DNA of 64,000 bases. Origin: Escherichia coli (GTDB taxonomy: Bacteria; Pseudomonadota; Gammaproteobacteria; Enterobacterales; Enterobacteriaceae). This document shows positions 1 through 46,589 of this stretch, in pieces. Where the stretch lies: NCBI RefSeq assembly GCF_003334255.1, contig NZ_QOWU01000001.1; one strand, given 5' to 3'. The first letter of the stretch is position 1. Each line of letters opens with the position of its first letter. The translations under genes and the position numbers were made by a program. The notes beneath the pieces were generated by a model. That model was not told the DNA's origin and ran no database searches. It worked only from the letters and a program-made list of their open reading frames with translations.

Positions 1-171
1 AACAGCGTTACTGACCGCAGGTTGCGACATTCCCAGAACATGAGCGGCACGAGTAATGTTTTGCTCCTGCATCACGGCATCGAAAACGGTTAATAAGTTG
101 AGATCGACCATGCGTAGCTGTGGTTTGCTTAACTCCGCCGTCTCTGGATGATCTGTTTGTACCTCTGGCAT
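1..171 (-). CDS. leuO: LysR-family regulator LeuO, N-terminal 57 codons only (gene continues beyond window start)
   Basis: Reverse complement from ATG at 171..169 translates to [57 protein letters not shown] (LysR HTH region); divergent from leuL as in E. coli. Confidence 0.85.
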
Positions 172-830
172 ACTTAACTCCACTGTCACACTTAACTCCC
201 TTTCCCTTATTGGAATGCAGAGAAATAATCCTGAAGAATATGATTTATCATGCATATAAAATAAGAAAAAGCAAAATGAGTAAAATTCGGAAAACATAAA
301 GATACGGGTTCTGATAAAAACAGAATCCATTGCCGTGGAATGAGTCATTTACCACAGCATAATAATCCATAATGTTTTTGTTGCGAAAACAATCTAATCA
401 TAACTACCGCGAATACTCAATCATCTACAAAATGGATTAAATGTGCTTATTTAATAATTAATTTATATATTTAATGCATTAATTCTTAACATTAATTGAT
501 CAATAATATTCACCAAATCAATATCAAAAAAAATCGCAAAACATATAATTCAATACAAATCATCAGGATAGGTTTTGCAACGCGTGCATTTTGTCCCCTT
601 TTTCCTCGTTGATTAGATGCAAAAATTTATGCTGAAATATGTCAACCGATGAAAAGCGTCGGTAGTTAAGCAGAAATTAATATCGCTTACTTTAACCACC
701 GCAGCACAATTAGCTAATTTTACGGATGCAGAACTCACGCTGGCGGGACGTTTTTATTGCGTCAGGGTTGACATCCGTTTTTGTATCCAGTAACTCTAAA
801 AGCATATCGCATTCATCTGGAGCTGATTTA
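172..830. promoter_or_regulatory. AT-rich leuO-leuL divergent intergenic region containing the leuLABCD promoter (-35 TTGACA at 768..773)
   Basis: Very AT-rich tract between divergent leuO and leuL; TTGACA at 768-773 with a 17-bp spacer to TAACTC just upstream of leuL. Confidence 0.55.
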
Positions 831-917
831 ATGACTCACATCGTTCGCTTTATCGGTCTACTACTACTAAACGCATCTTCTTTGCGCGGTAGACGAGTGA
901 GCGGCATCCAGCATTAA
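831..917 (+). CDS. leuL: leu operon leader peptide (28 aa, four consecutive Leu codons CTA)
   Basis: [28 protein letters not shown] is the last 28 codons of ORF 726..917; run of four CTA Leu codons; followed by an attenuator hairpin. Confidence 0.9.
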
Positions 918-940
918 GCCAGCACGCAGTCAAACAAAAA

Positions 941-967
941 ACCCGCGCCATTGCGCGGGTTTTTTTA
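941..967 (+). terminator. leu attenuator, rho-independent terminator
   Basis: GC hairpin acccgcgcc-attg-cgcgggt followed by a T7 run, between leuL and leuA. Confidence 0.85.
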
Positions 968-1009
968 TGCCCGAAGCGAGGCGCTCTAAAAGAGACAAGG
1001 ACCCAAACC

Positions 1010-3672
<2,663 letters not shown>

Positions 3673-3674
3673 TC

Positions 3675-5691
<2,017 letters not shown>

Positions 5692-5704
5692 TCCCCTTGC
5701 CCGG

Positions 5705-5735
5705 TCAAATGACCGGGCTTTCCGCTATCGTCCAC
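5705..5735. terminator. Bidirectional hairpin between convergent leuD and setA
   Basis: cccggtcaaatgaccggg hairpin located between the two convergent stop codons. Confidence 0.5.
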
Positions 5736-5739
5736 GTCA

Positions 5740-6918
5740 TCAAACGTCTTTAACCTTTGCGGTTAAAAATAATGCGACAACAGAAATAACCGCAATTACC
5801 CAGTAGACAGCAAAGTGCCCCCAACTTTGTGCAATTGCTCCCTGAATAACGCCAGCCAGAATTACCCCGGTAGAAATACTGTTAGTAAATAAGGTGGTAG
5901 CTGCCCCCGCTCTTCCAGGCATTAAATCCTGAAACCATAGCATCCCAATACCCGCAACAATGCCGATAAATACAGCGTTAAAAAGTTGCAGCGTCATCAA
6001 CGCCATACGGCTATTAAAGAAAATCAATCCGGTGTAAAACAGTACTCCTGCCGCCACTGCTATGACCATCATTCGCCGCTTACCATAACGTTTGACATAG
6101 TAGCCAGCCAGAATCATTGCTGGTATTTCCAGTCCAGCTGCCGTCCCCATCAGGAAACCCGCCAGTTTGTCTGGCAATCCTAACTCGCTACTGATCCACA
6201 ACGGCATATCAATAATGTACATGGTGTTGCAGGTCCACATTAACGTCGAGGCGACAAATAACATCCGTACGTTACTATCCTGCCAGCCACCTTGCATTGA
6301 TAAAGCATTTTCCGACGGCAGTTCTACCCGCGCCACAGACGGAAGCATAAATGCAATCAATACCAGACTGAGTGTGAATATCCCGGCGGCAATCGAAAAC
6401 ATCACCGTAAAGCCGTAATTCAACGCCAGCATAAAGGCCAACGGTGGACCGATAACCCATGCCAGAGAAAGCTGCGCACGCATCACCGAGCTAAACATCA
6501 CCACTTCTCGCGCCGAGTTATCCGCATATTCCCGCGCCAGAGCAAATAACTGTGGCATTGCCGTATTGGCCAGAGATGCCAGAAGCACACCACAGGTGAT
6601 AAGCGTCAGATAATGACGATTAAATGCAAACAATAGCGCATTGCCGATAGCCATCAAACAGCAAAATATAATCAGTTTTCGCCGATCGCCCTGACTGTCA
6701 GAACGTTTTGCCAACCAGAGGCTTACGCCGATCCCAGCAATAGCATTCACCGTATAAAAGAGGCCGATCCAGAAAGGTTGCGCGCCAACCTCACGACTCA
6801 GAAATAAGCTCAATGTAGGAGCCTGTAGCGCCCCGGCCACCCCCATCATAAAAGCGACCAGCATAAATGCCGCGTAAACACCGTTCATACGGCGAGCCAT
6901 CGTCATTATCCAGATCAT
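5740..6918 (-). CDS. setA: MFS sugar efflux transporter SetA
   Basis: 392-aa polytopic membrane ORF; immediately downstream of sgrS/sgrT on the same strand. Confidence 0.93.
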   Translation of the reverse strand: MIWIMTMARRMNGVYAAFMLVAFMMGVAGALQAPTLSLFLSREVGAQPFWIGLFYTVNAIAGIGVSLWLAKRSDSQGDRRKLIIFCCLMAIGNALLFAFNRHYLTLITCGVLLASLANTAMPQLFALAREYADNSAREVVMFSSVMRAQLSLAWVIGPPLAFMLALNYGFTVMFSIAAGIFTLSLVLIAFMLPSVARVELPSENALSMQGGWQDSNVRMLFVASTLMWTCNTMYIIDMPLWISSELGLPDKLAGFLMGTAAGLEIPAMILAGYYVKRYGKRRMMVIAVAAGVLFYTGLIFFNSRMALMTLQLFNAVFIGIVAGIGMLWFQDLMPGRAGAATTLFTNSISTGVILAGVIQGAIAQSWGHFAVYWVIAVISVVALFLTAKVKDV

Positions 6919-6945
6919 ACGTTCCCTTTTTAGCGCGGCGAGAAT

Positions 6946-7172
6946 AAAAAAAACCAGCAGGTATAATCTGCTGGCGGGTGATTTTACACCAATACTCAGT
7001 CACACATGATGCAGGCAAGTCAACTTTCAGAATTGCGGTCATCCCACTGCATCAGTCCTTCAAGCATGGTTAATCGTTGTGGGACGCTTAACCAACGCAA
7101 CCAGCACAACTTCGCTGTCGCGGTAAAATAGTGCTGATAAAACTGACGCATGGGGCACCCCCTTGCTTCATC
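6946..7172 (-). ncRNA. sgrS: SgrS small RNA (dual-function: base-pairing sRNA and sgrT mRNA)
   Basis: Minus-strand sequence from 7172 reads GATGAAGCAAGGGGGTGCCCCATGCG...; 3' end is a ccagcagattatacctgctgg hairpin plus T8 at 6974..6946. Confidence 0.88.
7020..7151 (-). CDS. sgrT: SgrT small protein (43 aa) encoded within SgrS
   Basis: MRQFYQHYFTATAKLCWLRWLSVPQRLTMLEGLMQWDDRNSES is the C-terminal 43 codons of ORF 7020..7319. Confidence 0.85.
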   Translation of the reverse strand: MRQFYQHYFTATAKLCWLRWLSVPQRLTMLEGLMQWDDRNSES

Positions 7173-7239
7173 GTTAGGAATTATTGACTTAATATAGGGA
7201 AAATAAAATTGCTGTCTTTTGCACAGGAGTTCCCCTTTT

Positions 7240-8895
7240 ATGCCATCTGCTCGTCTGCAACAACAGTTCATCCGCCTGTGGCAATGCTGCGAGGGTAAAT
7301 CGCAGGACACAACGCTCAACGAACTGGCAGCGTTATTGAGCTGCTCGCGTCGTCATATGCGCACCCTGCTCAACACCATGCAGGATCGCGGCTGGCTGAC
7401 GTGGGAAGCGGAAGTCGGGCGCGGTAAACGCTCGCGTCTGACATTCCTCTATACCGGGCTGGCGCTTCAGCAACAGCGGGCGGAAGACCTGCTGGAGCAG
7501 GATCGTATCGATCAACTGGTGCAGTTGGTTGGCGACAAAGCGACTGTGCGGCAAATGCTGGTTTCTCATCTGGGCCGCAGCTTCCGCCAGGGGCGGCACA
7601 TCCTGCGCGTGCTCTACTATCGTCCGTTGCGTAATCTGCTACCTGGCAGCGCATTGCGCCGTTCCGAAACCCATATCGCCCGGCAAATCTTCAGTTCGCT
7701 AACGCGCATAAATGAGGAAAATGGGGAACTGGAAGCAGACATCGCCCACCACTGGCAGCAAATTTCACCGCTTCACTGGCGTTTCTTTTTGCGTCCAGGA
7801 GTCCATTTTCACCATGGTCGTGAACTGGAAATGGACGATGTGATCGCCTCTTTAAAACGAATCAATACGCTGCCGCTCTATTCGCATATTGCTGACATTG
7901 TGTCGCCGACGCCCTGGACGCTGGATATCCATCTCACGCAACCGGACCGCTGGTTACCGTTACTGCTGGGGCAAGTTCCGGCGATGATCCTGCCGCGCGA
8001 ATGGGAAACCCTCAGTAACTTTGCCAGCCATCCCATCGGCACCGGTCCGTATGCGGTGATTCGCAACAGCACCAATCAACTGAAAATTCAGGCATTCGAT
8101 GACTTCTTCGGTTACCGGGCATTAATCGACGAAGTTAACGTCTGGGTTCTGCCGGAAATTGCCGACGAGCCAGCCGGAGGGCTGATGCTAAAAGGTCCAC
8201 AGGGCGAGGAAAAAGAGATTGAAAGCCGCCTGGAGGAAGGTTGCTACTATTTACTGTTCGACAGCCGCACCCATCGCGGGGCGAATCAGCAAGTCAGGGA
8301 CTGGGTAAGCTATGTGCTTTCTCCAACTAATCTGGTCTATTTCGCTGAGGAACAGTACCAGCAACTGTGGTTCCCGGCTTATGGACTGCTCCCCCGTTGG
8401 CACCATGCCCGCACCATAAAGAGCGAAAAACCGGCTGGCCTGGAAAGCCTCACCCTAACCTTTTATCAGGATCACAGTGAGCATCGGGTGATTGCCGGGA
8501 TCATGCAGCAGATTCTGGCAAGTCACCAGGTCACGCTGAAAATCAAAGAGATCGACTACGATCAGTGGCATACAGGAGAGATCGAAAGTGATATCTGGCT
8601 AAACAGCGCCAACTTTACCCTGCCGCTGGACTTCTCTGTTTTCGCACATTTATGCGAAGTGCCACTGCTACAACATTGCATTCCCATTGACTGGCAAGCC
8701 GACGCTGCTCGCTGGCGCAATGGCGAGATGAATCTGGCGAACTGGTGCCAGCAACTGGTCGCCAGCAAAGCGATGGTGCCATTATTGCACCACTGGCTGA
8801 TCATTCAGGGGCAACGCAGTATGCGCGGCCTGCGCATGAATACCCTCGGCTGGTTCGATTTTAAATCAGCGTGGTTTGCGCCACCGGATCCATGA
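7240..8895 (+). CDS. sgrR: Transcriptional activator SgrR (HTH plus solute-binding-like domain)
   Basis: 551 aa from ATG at 7240 ([15 protein letters not shown]...); divergent from sgrS. Confidence 0.93.
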
Positions 8896-8924
8896 TTGCT
8901 GGTTGATAACAAAATCACTACACT

Positions 8925-9015
8925 AACGCCGTTCTCAACGGGGTGCCACGCGTACGCGTGCGCTGAGAAAATACCCGTCGAACCTGATCCGGATAACGCC
9001 GGCGAAGGGATTTGA
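8925..9015 (+). promoter_or_regulatory. sroA: TPP (THI-box) riboswitch in the thiBPQ leader
   Basis: Conserved THI-box elements ggggtgcc ... gctgaga ... accc ... aacctgatccggataacgccggcgaaggga directly upstream of thiB. Confidence 0.8.
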
Positions 9016-9058
9016 GGCTCCTTCTCAAGTCCTTTGCCACTCTTTTTTGAGGTGCAAA

Positions 9059-10042
9059 GTGTTAAAAAAATGTCTGCCCCTGCTGTTGCTGTGCACAGCG
9101 CCCGTTTTCGCTAAACCCGTTCTGACTGTTTATACCTACGATTCCTTCGCCGCCGACTGGGGGCCTGGTCCGGTGGTTAAAAAAGCCTTTGAAGCCGACT
9201 GTAATTGCGAACTGAAACTGGTGGCGCTGGAAGATGGCGTTTCGCTTCTCAACCGTCTACGGATGGAAGGCAAAAACAGTAAAGCCGATGTGGTGCTGGG
9301 GCTGGATAACAACCTGTTAGACGCCGCCAGTAAAACCGGACTGTTTGCCAAAAGCGGTGTGGCAGCGGATGCCGTTAACGTTCCCGGCGGCTGGAATAAT
9401 GACACTTTCGTACCGTTTGATTATGGCTACTTCGCCTTCGTTTATGACAAGAACAAACTGAAAAACCCGCCACAAAGCCTGAAAGAACTGGTTGAGAGCG
9501 ATCAAAACTGGCGGGTGATTTATCAGGATCCGCGCACCAGTACACCGGGGCTGGGTCTGTTGCTATGGATGCAAAAAGTCTATGGCGATGACGCCCCACA
9601 AGCCTGGCAGAAACTGGCGAAGAAAACGGTCACGGTCACCAAAGGCTGGAGCGAAGCCTACGGCCTGTTTTTAAAAGGTGAAAGCGATCTGGTACTGAGT
9701 TACACCACCTCTCCGGCTTATCACATTCTCGAAGAGAAGAAAGATAACTACGCCGCCGCGAACTTCAGCGAAGGTCACTATCTGCAAGTGGAAGTCGCCG
9801 CCCGCACCGCTGCCAGCAAGCAGCCGGAGCTGGCGCAAAAATTCCTCCAGTTTATGGTTTCTCCGGCTTTCCAGAATGCGATCCCAACCGGCAACTGGAT
9901 GTATCCGGTGGCAAACGTCACGCTGCCTGCCGGTTTTGAAAAATTGACCAAACCCGCAACCACGTTGGAGTTCACGCCAGCCGAAGTGGCGGCACAACGT
10001 CAGGCATGGATTAGCGAATGGCAACGCGCCGTCAGCCGTTAA
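9059..10042 (+). CDS. thiB: Thiamine ABC transporter periplasmic binding protein (GTG start)
   Basis: 327 aa from GTG at 9059 (MLKKCLPLLLLCTAPVFA, signal peptide); the ORF track extends upstream to a TTG at 9047. Confidence 0.92.
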   Translation: MLKKCLPLLLLCTAPVFAKPVLTVYTYDSFAADWGPGPVVKKAFEADCNCELKLVALEDGVSLLNRLRMEGKNSKADVVLGLDNNLLDAASKTGLFAKSGVAADAVNVPGGWNNDTFVPFDYGYFAFVYDKNKLKNPPQSLKELVESDQNWRVIYQDPRTSTPGLGLLLWMQKVYGDDAPQAWQKLAKKTVTVTKGWSEAYGLFLKGESDLVLSYTTSPAYHILEEKKDNYAAANFSEGHYLQVEVAARTAASKQPELAQKFLQFMVSPAFQNAIPTGNWMYPVANVTLPAGFEKLTKPATTLEFTPAEVAAQRQAWISEWQRAVSR

Positions 10043-11629
10043 TTCCCGGCTGGTTAATTCCAGGTGTAAGCGCCACCACGCTGGTGGTAGCGGTTGCGCT
10101 GGCGGCGTTTCTCGCCCTGTGGTGGAACGCGCCGCAGGATGACTGGGTGGCAGTCTGGCAGGACAGCTATCTGTGGCATGTGGTGCGCTTCTCCTTCTGG
10201 CAGGCGTTTCTCTCGGCACTGCTCTCTGTCATACCCGCGATATTCCTCGCCCGCGCGCTCTATCGCAGGCGCTTTCCGGGTCGGCTGGCGCTGTTGCGTC
10301 TGTGTGCAATGACCTTGATCCTCCCGGTGTTGGTCGCTGTTTTCGGCATTCTTAGCGTCTATGGTCGCCAGGGCTGGCTGGCAACACTCTGCCAATTCGC
10401 TCGGTCTGGAGTGGACCTTTTCGCCCTACGGCCTGCAAGGTATTTTGCTGGCCCATGTGTTTTTTAATCTGCCGATGGCGAGCCGCTTATTACTCCAGGC
10501 ACTGGAAAACATCCCCGGCGAACAGCGTCAACTTGCCGCCCAGCTTGGGATGCGTAGCTGGCATTTTTTCCGCTTCGTCGAATGGCCGTGGTTACGGCGA
10601 CAAATCCCGCCGGTTGCTGCGCTTATCTTTATGCTCTGTTTCGCCAGCTTCGCCACCGTGCTATCGCTGGGGGGCGGTCCGCAGGCGACCACTATCGAGC
10701 TGGCAATCTATCAGGCGCTGAGTTACGACTACGATCCTGCCCGCGCGGCAATGCTGGCGCTGCTCCAGATGGTGTGCTGCCTCGGGCTGGTGCTGTTGAG
10801 TCAGCGATTGAGTAAGGCCATTGCGCCCGGCACCACGCTGCTGCAAGGCTGGCGCGACCCGGACGATCGTCTGCATAGCCGCATTTGCGACACGGTGTTA
10901 ATTGTGCTGGCGCTGCTGCTGTTGCTGCCACCGTTACTGGCGGTGATCGTCGATGGGGTAAATCGCCAGTTGCCGGAAGTGCTGGCACAACCGGTGCTGT
11001 GGCAGGCGCTGTGGACCTCGTTGCGTATTGCGCTGGCGGCAGGTGTATTGTGCGTAGTGCTGACCATGATGCTGCTATGGAGCAGTCGCGAACTGCGGGC
11101 GCGGCAGAAAATGCTGGCGGGTCAGGTGCTGGAGATGAGCGGCATGTTGATCCTCGCCATGCCGGGGATTGTGCTGGCTACCGGCTTCTTTTTACTGCTC
11201 AACAACACTATCGGCCTGCCACAATCTGCTGACGGCATTGTGATTTTCACCAATGCGTTAATGGCGATCCCTTATGCGCTGAAAGTGCTGGAAAACCCGA
11301 TGCGCGATATCACCGCCCGCTACAGCATGTTATGTCAGTCGCTGGGGATTGAAGGCTGGTCACGCTTAAAAGTGGTGGAGCTGCGCGCCCTGAAACGTCC
11401 ACTGGCGCAGGCGCTGGCCTTTGCATGCGTGCTGTCGATTGGTGATTTTGGCGTGGTGGCGTTGTTCGGTAACGATGATTTCCGCACCCTGCCGTTTTAT
11501 CTCTACCAGCAAATTGGCTCCTATCGCAGCCAGGACGGTGCGGTCACCGCGTTAATTCTGCTGCTGCTCTGTTTTCTGCTGTTTACCGTGATTGAAAAAC
11601 TACCGGGGCGAAATGTTAAAACTGACTGA
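10018..11629 (+). pseudogene. thiP: Thiamine ABC transporter permease ThiP, reading frame broken by an apparent +1 frameshift near 10396
   Basis: Two overlapping ORFs in different frames (10018..10467 and 10361..11629); the span is 1612 bp, not a multiple of 3; both carry ThiP-like sequence. Confidence 0.7.
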
Positions 11630-12311
11630 TATCACCTGGCTTTACCACCATTTGCCGATGCGTTTTAGCTTAACGGTGGAACGCGGCGAGCAGGTGGCGA
11701 TCCTCGGGCCAAGCGGCGCGGGTAAAAGTACCCTGCTGAATTTGATCGCCGGTTTTCTGACGCCAGCCAGCGGTTCGCTGACTATCGATGGCGTAGATCA
11801 CACAACTATGCCGCCGTCACGCCGTCCGGTGTCGATGCTGTTTCAGGAGAACAACCTGTTCAGCCACCTGACGGTCGCACAGAACATCGGGCTGGGGCTA
11901 AATCCGGGATTGAAACTGAACGCGGTACAGCAGGGGAAAATGCACGCTATCGCCCGCCAGATGGGGATTGATAATTTAATGGCGCGGTTACCGGGCGAGC
12001 TTTCCGGCGGTCAGCGACAGCGAGTGGCGTTAGCGCGTTGTCTGGTACGCGAACAGCCGATTTTATTGCTCGATGAACCGTTCTCTGCGCTCGATCCGGC
12101 GTTACGTCAGGAGATGTTGACGCTGGTGAGCACGAGCTGCCAGCAGCAAAAAATGACGCTATTGATGGTGTCGCACAGCGTGGAAGATGCGGCGCGGATC
12201 GCCACGCGCTCGGTAGTAGTCGCCGACGGGCGCATCGCCTGGCAGGGTATGACCAATGAGTTGTTGAGCGGTAAGGCGAGTGCTTCGGCACTATTGGGGA
12301 TTACGGGTTAG
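11613..12311 (+). CDS. thiQ: Thiamine ABC transporter ATP-binding protein
   Basis: 232 aa from ATG at 11613; Walker [10 protein letters not shown] and ABC signature LSGGQRQR; overlaps the thiP 3' end by 17 nt. Confidence 0.94.
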
Positions 12312-12318
12312 TATGCAC

Positions 12319-12404
<86 letters not shown>

Positions 12405-12424
12405 AACCCGCACAAGACTATCTC

Positions 12425-13189
12425 CTAAACCCCAACCACTTTACGCAAAATATCGATATACACCGGCATCAACGGGTGGCGAATTAACACCACCAGCGCC
12501 ACCACGCCGATGGCAGAAATCAACGGCGTCAGCCACAACAAACGACCGCGGGACAAATAATGACTCAAACGGTCAGTCGCTTTACCGCTGCGCCATAACC
12601 GCCAGCACAGCCAGCCACCAACCCACAAAAACACCGCTGTTGCCAGCAGCAACCATTTAAACTCACCGCTCTGCATTCCGGCAGGAATATCGATCGCCGC
12701 GCCCGCCAGAATCCCTGGCAGGAAGTAAAACGGCGGCCACAGCAGGCAGCCGATAATATTCGGCGTAATAAATTTAGCCACCGGCAGATCCAGCATTCCC
12801 GCCACCATTGGCACCAGCGGACGCGTCGGGCCAACAAAACGACCGACCAGAATGGTGAACATGCTGTGTTGATGCAACGCATGTTCAGTTTTATCAAGTA
12901 GTGCTTTGTTTTTCTTCAGAAATGACCAGCGATGCAACGGCTTTTTAAAACGCCAACCCAGCCAGAAAGAAATCCAGTCGCCCATCAAGCAGCCAATAAT
13001 CCCTGCCAGCCAGGCGTGCCAGAAACTTAACTCGCCGCTGCCAATCAGCGCTCCCAGCCCCGCCATCAGCACCGTACCGGGTAGAATCAAACCGACCAGC
13101 GCCAGCGACTCCAGAAAGGCCACCAACACCACCGCCATCAATGAATACACGGTGGATTGGGTAATAAAGTGTTCCAGCAATGCTTGCAT
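12425..13189 (-). CDS. yabI: DedA-family inner membrane protein
   Basis: 254-aa membrane ORF; position between thiQ and araC. Confidence 0.9.
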   Translation of the reverse strand: MQALLEHFITQSTVYSLMAVVLVAFLESLALVGLILPGTVLMAGLGALIGSGELSFWHAWLAGIIGCLMGDWISFWLGWRFKKPLHRWSFLKKNKALLDKTEHALHQHSMFTILVGRFVGPTRPLVPMVAGMLDLPVAKFITPNIIGCLLWPPFYFLPGILAGAAIDIPAGMQSGEFKWLLLATAVFLWVGGWLCWRLWRSGKATDRLSHYLSRGRLLWLTPLISAIGVVALVVLIRHPLMPVYIDILRKVVGV

Positions 13190-13274
13190 AATGTGCCTGT
13201 CAAATGGACGAAGCAGGGATTCTGCAAACCCTATGCTACTCCGTCAAGCCGTCAATTGTCTGATTCGTTACCAA

Positions 13275-14153
13275 TTATGACAACTTGACGGCTACATCAT
13301 TCACTTTTTCTTCACAACCGGCACGAAACTCGCTCGGGCTGGCCCCGGTGCATTTTTTAAATACTCGCGAGAAATAGAGTTGATCGTCAAAACCAACATT
13401 GCGACCGACGGTGGCGATAGGCATCCGGGTAGTGCTCAAAAGCAGCTTCGCCTGACTAATGCGTTGGTCCTCGCGCCAGCTTAAGACGCTAATCCCTAAC
13501 TGCTGGCGGAAAAGATGTGACAGACGCGACGGCGACAAGCAAACATGCTGTGCGACGCTGGCGATATCAAAATTGCTGTCTGCCAGGTGATCGCTGATGT
13601 ACTGACAAGCCTCGCGTACCCGATTATCCATCGGTGGATGGAGCGACTCGTTAATCGCTTCCATGCGCCGCAGTAACAATTGCTCAAGCAGATTTATCGC
13701 CAGCAGCTCCGAATAGCGCCCTTCCCCTTGCCCGGCGTTAATGATTTGCCCAAACAGGTCGCTGAAATGCGGCTGGTGCGCTTCATCCGGGCGAAAGAAA
13801 CCCGTATTGGCAAATATTGACGGCCAGTTAAGCCATTCATGCCAGTAGGCGCGCGGACGAAAGTAAACCCACTGGTGATACCATTCGCGAGCCTCCGGAT
13901 GACGACCGTAGTGATGAATCTCTCCTGGCGGGAACAGCAAAATATCACCCGGTCGGCAGACAAATTCTCGTCCCTGATTTTTCACCACCCCCTGACCGCG
14001 AATGGTGAGATTGAGAATATAACCTTTCATTCCCAGCGGTCGGTCGATAAAAAAATCGAGATAACCGTTGGCCTCAATCGGCGTTAAACCCGCCACCAGA
14101 TGGGCGTTAAACGAGTATCCCGGCAGCAGGGGATCATTTTGCGCTTCAGCCAT
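13275..14153 (-). CDS. araC: Arabinose operon regulator AraC
   Basis: 292 aa from ATG at 14153 ([22 protein letters not shown]...); the ORF track extends 17 codons upstream. Confidence 0.96.
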
Positions 14154-16192
<2,039 letters not shown>

Positions 16193-16202
16193 GGACACGA
16201 TA

Positions 16203-17705
16203 ATGACGATTTTTGATAATTATGAAGTGTGGTTTGTCATTGGCAGCCAGCATCTGTATGGCCCGGAAACCCTGCGTCAGGTCACCCAACATGCCGAGCA
16301 CGTCGTTAATGCGCTGAATACGGAAGCGAAACTGCCCTGCAAACTGGTGTTGAAACCGCTGGGCACCACGCCGGATGAAATCACCGCTATTTGCCGCGAC
16401 GCGAATTACGACGATCGTTGCGCTGGTCTGGTGGTGTGGCTGCACACCTTCTCCCCGGCCAAAATGTGGATCAACGGCCTGACCATGCTCAACAAACCGT
16501 TGCTGCAATTCCACACCCAGTTCAACGCGGCGCTGCCGTGGGACAGTATCGATATGGACTTTATGAACCTGAACCAGACTGCACATGGCGGTCGCGAGTT
16601 CGGCTTCATTGGCGCGCGTATGCGTCAGCAACATGCCGTGGTTACCGGTCACTGGCAGGATAAACAAGCCCATGAGCGTATCGGCTCCTGGATGCGTCAG
16701 GCGGTCTCTAAACAGGATACCCGTCATCTGAAAGTCTGCCGATTTGGCGATAACATGCGTGAAGTGGCGGTCACCGATGGCGATAAAGTTGCCGCACAGA
16801 TCAAGTTCGGTTTCTCCGTCAATACCTGGGCGGTTGGCGATCTGGTGCAGGTGGTGAACTCCATCAGCGACGGCGATGTTAACGCGCTGGTCGATGAGTA
16901 CGAAAGCTGCTACACCATGACGCCTGCCACACAAATCCACGGCAAAAAACGACAGAACGTGCTGGAAGCGGCGCGTATTGAGCTGGGGATGAAGCGTTTC
17001 CTGGAACAAGGTGGCTTCCACGCGTTCACCACCACCTTTGAAGATTTGCACGGTCTGAAACAGCTTCCTGGTCTGGCCGTACAGCGTCTGATGCAGCAGG
17101 GTTACGGCTTTGCGGGCGAAGGCGACTGGAAAACTGCCGCCCTGCTTCGCATCATGAAGGTGATGTCAACCGGTCTGCAGGGCGGCACCTCCTTTATGGA
17201 GGACTACACCTATCACTTCGAGAAAGGTAATGACCTGGTGCTCGGCTCCCATATGCTGGAAGTCTGCCCGTCGATCGCCGCAGAAGAGAAACCGATCCTC
17301 GACGTTCAGCATCTCGGTATTGGTGGTAAGGACGATCCTGCCCGCCTGATCTTCAATACCCAAACCGGCCCAGCGATTGTCGCCAGCTTGATTGATCTCG
17401 GCGATCGTTACCGTCTACTGGTTAACTGCATCGACACGGTGAAAACACCGCACTCCCTGCCGAAACTGCCGGTGGCGAATGCGCTGTGGAAAGCGCAACC
17501 GGATCTGCCAACTGCTTCCGAAGCGTGGATCCTCGCTGGTGGCGCGCACCATACCGTCTTCAGCCATGCACTGAACCTCAACGATATGCGCCAATTCGCC
17601 GAGATGCACGACATTGAAATCACGGTGATTGATAACGACACACGCCTGCCAGCGTTTAAAGACGCGCTGCGCTGGAACGAAGTGTATTACGGGTTTCGTC
17701 GCTAA
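16203..17705 (+). CDS. araA: L-arabinose isomerase
   Basis: 500 aa from ATG at 16203 ([20 protein letters not shown]...). Confidence 0.96.
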
Positions 17706-17708
17706 GTA

Positions 17709-36717: not shown

Positions 36718-37240
36718 GATGGGCCTCCTGCCATTCCAGCGGACGTTGCTTATAGTGACGCGCCTGCCCTTCGAGGGTTTCGTCGTCACAAATAAAGGTG
36801 CAGTGCATGGCAAACGGTGGCAGCCAGTTCAGCCCGCAGTAGATTGCCGTCGCCTGTAGCGGCTGCGACAGCACATCAAAGCCCGGATGCGCACCAATTT
36901 CAAAATGGCTTTCCCCGCCGCCGGTCGTCACCGCCCACAGCAAATGTTTGCCATGCAGCGCCTTGCCGCCGTGACCGTAAGCCCAGCCGTGCGACAAAAC
37001 TTTATCGATCCAAAGTTTAAGAAGCGGAGGAATGCTGTACCACTGCATCGGATGCTGCCAGACGATCAGATCGGCGCGAGACAGCGCCTCCTGCTCGGCG
37101 GCAATATCGATATTGAAGTCAGGATAGAGTTGATAAAGAGAGCGAATTTCGACGCCTTCCAGCGTCCTTGCCTGTTCAAGCATCCGTTTATTCGCATGGG
37201 AATGATGCGGATACGGATGCGCATAAATTATAAGAATCAT
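36710..37240 (-). CDS. kefF: KefC ancillary protein / quinone oxidoreductase KefF
   Basis: 176-aa flavodoxin-like ORF; 8-nt overlap with the kefC start. Confidence 0.94.
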
Positions 37241-38679: not shown

Positions 38680-38736
38680 GGGTTATTCCTGTTTTTTGCA
38701 ATGAGAGTCAGTGCGGCGTTACGTATCAAACCAACA

Positions 38737-45353: not shown

Positions 45354-46589
<1,236 letters not shown>

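Follow-up and report, generated by a model that had tools for sequence, protein, structure and literature searches.

Genomic context of the thiBPQ operon

The window, that is, the whole stretch of 64,000 nucleotides analyzed here, is a segment of the Escherichia coli chromosome that corresponds to the reverse complement of approximately 20.5 to 84.5 kb of the MG1655 genome, with the gene order leuO, leuLABCD, setA, sgrS/T, sgrR, thiBPQ, yabI, araC, araBAD, polB and so forth up to rpsT. The first 17.9 kb differ from MG1655 by two SNPs and a single gap (the T at position 10396), and the last 14 kb differ by SNPs only. The nearest complete genome is that of strain G6/7 (NZ_CP060061.1), which comes from healthy human feces; over 49.8 kb, it differs from the window by 4 SNPs, the extra T, and one 15-bp indel located in the repeat-bearing espY1/yabP pseudogene. 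The thiP gene of G6/7 is annotated as intact.

The thiBPQ operon is encoded on the plus strand and is preceded by an intact TPP riboswitch (THI element) in the leader (8929..9028, a full-length match to Rfam RF00059 with 65.9 bits against the gathering score of 54.3), which is also annotated in strain G6/7. The thiB gene (tbpA; 9059..10042, plus strand), coding for the periplasmic thiamine-binding protein, shows zero differences from MG1655, and its product scores 647 bits against NCBIfam TIGR01276 (cut-off 317). The thiQ gene (11613..12311, plus strand), coding for the ATP-binding subunit, is likewise identical in sequence to MG1655, with 445 bits against NCBIfam NF008039 (cut-off 298); its start, at 11613, overlaps the final 17 nt of thiP. 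Thus, the original prediction that thiB and thiQ are both intact agrees with the family models as well as with the reference genome.

A single-nucleotide insertion in thiP

The thiP region is covered by two overlapping open reading frames (ORFs) on the plus strand, 10018..10467 (149 aa) and 10361..11629 (422 aa). The combined span of 10018..11629 is 1612 nt, that is, 3×537+1, or a multiple of three plus 1; both the ORFs and the length of the span had been given correctly in the original prediction. The 149-aa ORF begins with MATRRQPLIPGW, reaches ...GRQGWLATLCQ, and then proceeds out of frame, as FARSGVDLFALRPARYFAGPCVF, to a TAA stop. The 422-aa ORF, in the +1 frame, has SLGLEWTFSPYGLQGILLAHVFFNLP starting at its own residue 13.

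From this arrangement, the original prediction deduced that the gene was thiP, with about 536 codons expected, and that the frame was shifted at about 10390-10400 through one extra T in 10396/10397. Alignment of 10018..11629 with the reference, the check that it had proposed, yields exactly this result: a single-base insertion is the sole difference from MG1655 thiP and, in fact, the one gap at window position 10396 (T versus '-') is the sole difference across the entire thiB-thiP-thiQ stretch. When one T is dropped from the TT at 10396/10397, the remaining 1611 nt are the same at every base as thiP of NC_000913.3 (b0067, formerly yabK/sfuB, the membrane subunit of the ThiBPQ importer; 100% identity), and direct comparison of the translations gives the identical 536-aa protein. 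Because the repaired gene matches its K-12 counterpart at every base, the mutation appears to be recent, with no further decay. Chance is of no concern here since the lesion is identified by direct sequence comparison and not through a statistical signal.

The lesion itself (10396..10397, plus strand; TT in place of a single T, appearing as a gap in comparisons with both MG1655 and G6/7) falls in thiP codon 127 (CAA-T-TCG) and converts CAA TCG CTC GGT (Q S L G) into CAA TTC GCT CGG (Q F A R). The 5' fragment (10018..10467, plus strand) accordingly consists of 126 native codons followed by 23 out-of-frame codons and the TAA stop at 10465..10467, so that the truncation after about 126 residues was anticipated accurately; the predicted product comprises 149 aa and not the 536 aa of MG1655 ThiP. 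The 3' remainder (10398..11629, plus strand), which comprises codons 127-536 together with the stop codon, has moved to the +1 frame and has no proven start of its own. Candidate in-frame starts for this part are ATG 10361, TTG 10445, and ATG 10475; the public gene call of the downstream ORF begins at the equivalent of TTG 10445, which gives a 394-aa product. An exact-sequence look-up of the 422-aa ORF returned no entry in the protein collection, which is uninformative because public gene callers start at TTG 10445.

Two further features of the region were considered. A compensating second indel further down thiP is rejected given that the remaining gene is identical to K-12. An antisense ORF (10054..10395, 113 aa), the start of which adjoins the lesion, is fortuitous, the gene being G+C-rich, and the insertion has no effect on it.

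Comparison with the ThiP family

The ThiP family is represented by NCBIfam NF006953 and TIGR01253; the NF006953 cut-off is 970 bits. Residues 1-127 of the 149-aa product match positions 1-127 of the 536 positions of NF006953 with 257 bits, and the 422-aa ORF matches positions 116-536 with 921 bits, so that the two fragments jointly span the entire model (1-536) and neither attains the full-length cut-off. In the repaired ThiP, Pfam BPD_transp_1 domains are found at residues 74-267 and 369-523; residue 127, where the frame changes, therefore belongs to the first of these. A simple hydropathy scan predicts that no more than about three membrane helices remain in the polypeptide initiated at the native start.

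A functional member of this family would be recognized by a full-length equivalog match, by a single unbroken ORF of about 536 codons scoring above the cut-off, by two tandem BPD_transp_1 domains in one polypeptide, and by the thiB-thiP-thiQ arrangement under a TPP riboswitch. The full-length match is obtained with both fragments taken together, the repaired gene being K-12 thiP, and the operon with the riboswitch in its leader is the same as in MG1655. In contrast, the coding sequence is broken into ORFs of 149 and 422 aa, and the polypeptide initiated at the native start ends after residue 126 with 23 junk residues, short of the two tandem domains. Because the unbroken ORF and the two-domain polypeptide are both missing, this thiP, judged by its sequence, is a frameshift pseudogene and does not count as a functional family member.

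Public copies of the allele and alternative explanations

An 81-nt query centered on the lesion was compared with a collection of 5,426 complete E. coli genomes; thiP was found in 5,400 of these by megablast, and the 81-nt stretch in 5,381. None of the 5,381 matching genomes carries the stretch at 100% identity; the best matches align the 81 query bases with 80 bases of the record, consistent with a one-base gap. The exact 149-aa frameshift product, by comparison, is public: an exact-sequence look-up retrieved CUJ85844.1 and CAM2963093.1, E. coli proteins of 149 aa labeled as thiamine transporter membrane protein or ThiP, in which zero differences from the product described here were detected. 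This product sits on 9 public contigs, which possibly represent one culture-collection strain sequenced repeatedly. Three of these contigs were fetched and are all 100% identical to the window, namely, CYUC01000003.1 (20,450 nt), a contig from SRR3825894 (12,330 nt), and one from SRR8529115 (2,052 nt); the latter two come from separate Logan assemblies, with unrelated run accession numbers, and a search of the literature on these two accessions found nothing on sample origin. CYUC01000003.1 corresponds to window positions 18..20467 at 100%, so that it probably represents either the source of the window or a clone-mate, and belongs to GCA_001299315.1, deposited as 'Achromobacter sp. ATCC35328'. 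The assembly with the prefix CYUC01 has been reported to be really E. coli (PMC5405338), a second paper makes the same assignment (PMC5597208), and the window, itself plainly E. coli, agrees with this identity. Because the allele is missing from the matching complete genomes, its support is confined to draft and short-read assemblies. The case also illustrates that independent public read sets allow an apparent frameshift to be checked without recourse to the original reads.

These observations bear directly on the possibility that the strain possesses an intact thiP and that the extra T arose as an error of sequencing or assembly. A single-base indel is the classic form of a consensus error, and this one is missing from all of the matching complete genomes. 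Against this stand the 9 public contigs with the frameshift product, among them those assembled separately from the two SRA runs, and the nature of the change, T to TT, which does not involve a long homopolymer. Furthermore, comparison with G6/7 over 49.8 kb and with MG1655 over the last 14 kb detects no other unexplained indel in the 64-kb window, which argues that the assembly is not error-prone. We therefore regard an artefact as very unlikely. The original prediction had left it open whether the insertion was real or equally a sequencing or assembly indel; the contigs, the two run assemblies, and the clean window now tilt the evidence strongly toward a real mutation. Because the exact product occurs on public contigs and the window has no further unexplained indel, the extra T most likely reflects a true mutation that arose recently in a single lineage. 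The product of this allele is already in the public databases, and the gene is an ordinary recent pseudogene, nothing new.

If the insertion is genuine, the gene could, in principle, still work, either through a +1 ribosomal shift at the site or through N- and C-terminal pieces that form a split permease. Under the latter scenario, termination-reinitiation is conceivable given that the in-frame ATG 10475 is located only 8 nt past the premature TAA; TTG 10445, in the native frame, is preceded by a weak AAGG, and no damage is seen in the 410 codons that follow the lesion. However, fragments starting from 10445 or 10475 would miss residues 127-142 or 127-152, respectively, inside the first BPD_transp_1 domain, and ATG 10361 has no recognizable ribosome-binding site. 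With respect to recoding, read-through of thiP would require a +1 shift, similarly to prfB (RF2), but the thiP site, unlike that of prfB, has neither a slippery codon nor a stop in frame at the point of the shift, is not preceded by a Shine-Dalgarno stimulator, and is not conserved in relatives. Direct reading of the site (...CTC TGC CAA TTC GCT CGG...) shows no shift-prone codon in CAA-UUC-GCU: the tRNA in the P site is unable to re-pair in the +1 frame, and the A site contains neither a slow codon nor a stop codon to cause a pause. A programmed +1 frameshift is accordingly rejected, all the more so as none of the 5,381 genomes, and no relative, has the split-frame arrangement with the extra T; transcriptional slippage is excluded as well, the run of only two T's being far too short. 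Continued function by any of these routes appears highly improbable, and we give still less credence to the specific version in which both fragments are translated, with re-initiation at ATG 10475 or TTG 10445, and either join ThiB and ThiQ as a split thiamine permease or supply a C-terminal permease with altered function. A further possibility is that the inactivation of thiP was selected and not neutral, for instance through resistance to a toxic thiamine analogue or through cost saving in a thiamine-prototrophic lineage. Thiamine analogues would enter the cell through ThiBPQ. Work on E. coli diversity within patients recorded thiP-affecting deletions and tbpA mutations in two of them (PMC7845604), indicating that loss of the thiamine importer recurs. 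Nevertheless, the presence of thiP in nearly all complete genomes indicates that loss is rare, and the insertion is a single allele of one lineage, the site showing no evidence of parallel mutations, so selection seems unlikely, if somewhat less so than the preceding alternatives. The selected-loss reading concerns the cause of the mutation and not its mechanism and is compatible with the frameshift-pseudogene explanation.

Predicted consequences for thiamine uptake

Taken together, the explanation that we consider very probable is that a genuine, recent, lineage-specific duplication of a T made thiP a frameshift pseudogene, with the predicted loss of uptake through ThiBPQ. Under this scenario, the second T in codon 127 would inactivate the gene for the permease of ThiBPQ, the ABC importer for thiamine and thiamine pyrophosphate. 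Ribosomes initiating at the normal start would produce a 149-aa polypeptide consisting of the three predicted helices and the 23 aberrant residues, which would lack most of the first permease domain and the entire second one. Devoid of a complete membrane subunit, ThiB and ThiQ would be unable to form a transporter. In binding-protein-dependent ABC importers, the complex requires a membrane subunit with both permease domains; therefore, high-affinity uptake of thiamine and TPP by ThiBPQ should be lost, and the cell would be expected to make its own thiamine de novo or to take it up with low affinity. In addition, the premature stop is located about 1.15 kb upstream of the thiQ start, so that translational coupling would be lost and thiQ expression may be lowered by a polar effect, though the gene is intact.

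In a thiamine prototroph, the thiP lesion would be expected to cause little or no phenotype on ordinary media. The lineage, which is probably the culture-collection strain whose assembly bears a wrong genus name, is predicted to be unable to scavenge thiamine or TPP at low concentrations. The relevance of the lesion for users of the strain is limited to work on thiamine uptake, the riboswitch, or thiamine analogues; otherwise, it mainly concerns strain annotation. More generally, the locus offers a clean case of a very young pseudogene, with one mutation and zero further decay.

Other differences in the window

Apart from thiBPQ, several local differences from the reference genomes were noted. 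A dense cluster of about 44 substitutions compared with MG1655, mostly spaced by multiples of three, is present in polB (19991..20822), with 0 differences from G6/7 in the same interval; this looks like a recombination tract with mostly third-position, probably synonymous changes. A smaller cluster of substitutions compared with MG1655 is found at 36963..37022 (kefF and the yaaU-kefF intergenic region). The repeat-bearing stretch at 25316..25432 (yabP/yabQ) contains two one-base indels and several SNPs compared with MG1655, along with a 15-nt deletion at 25364 relative to G6/7. In G6/7, this locus carries the annotation of a frameshifted type III secretion system (T3SS) effector, EspY1, and in K-12 it is annotated as two genes, yabP and yabQ; it is thus an older pseudogene common to the group. 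The araA-araD intergenic region (17711..17891) is 85 nt shorter than in MG1655, with one copy less of a repeated unit, and the BLAST alignments overlap there with an 85-nt offset. One extra G compared with MG1655 (position 45806) is present at 38680, directly upstream of the yaaU start; the same G is found in G6/7, so the difference is specific to K-12 and does not distinguish the present strain. Finally, the SgrS small RNA is present at full length on the minus strand (6946..7172; Rfam RF00534, 228.8 bits), divergent from sgrR as in K-12.
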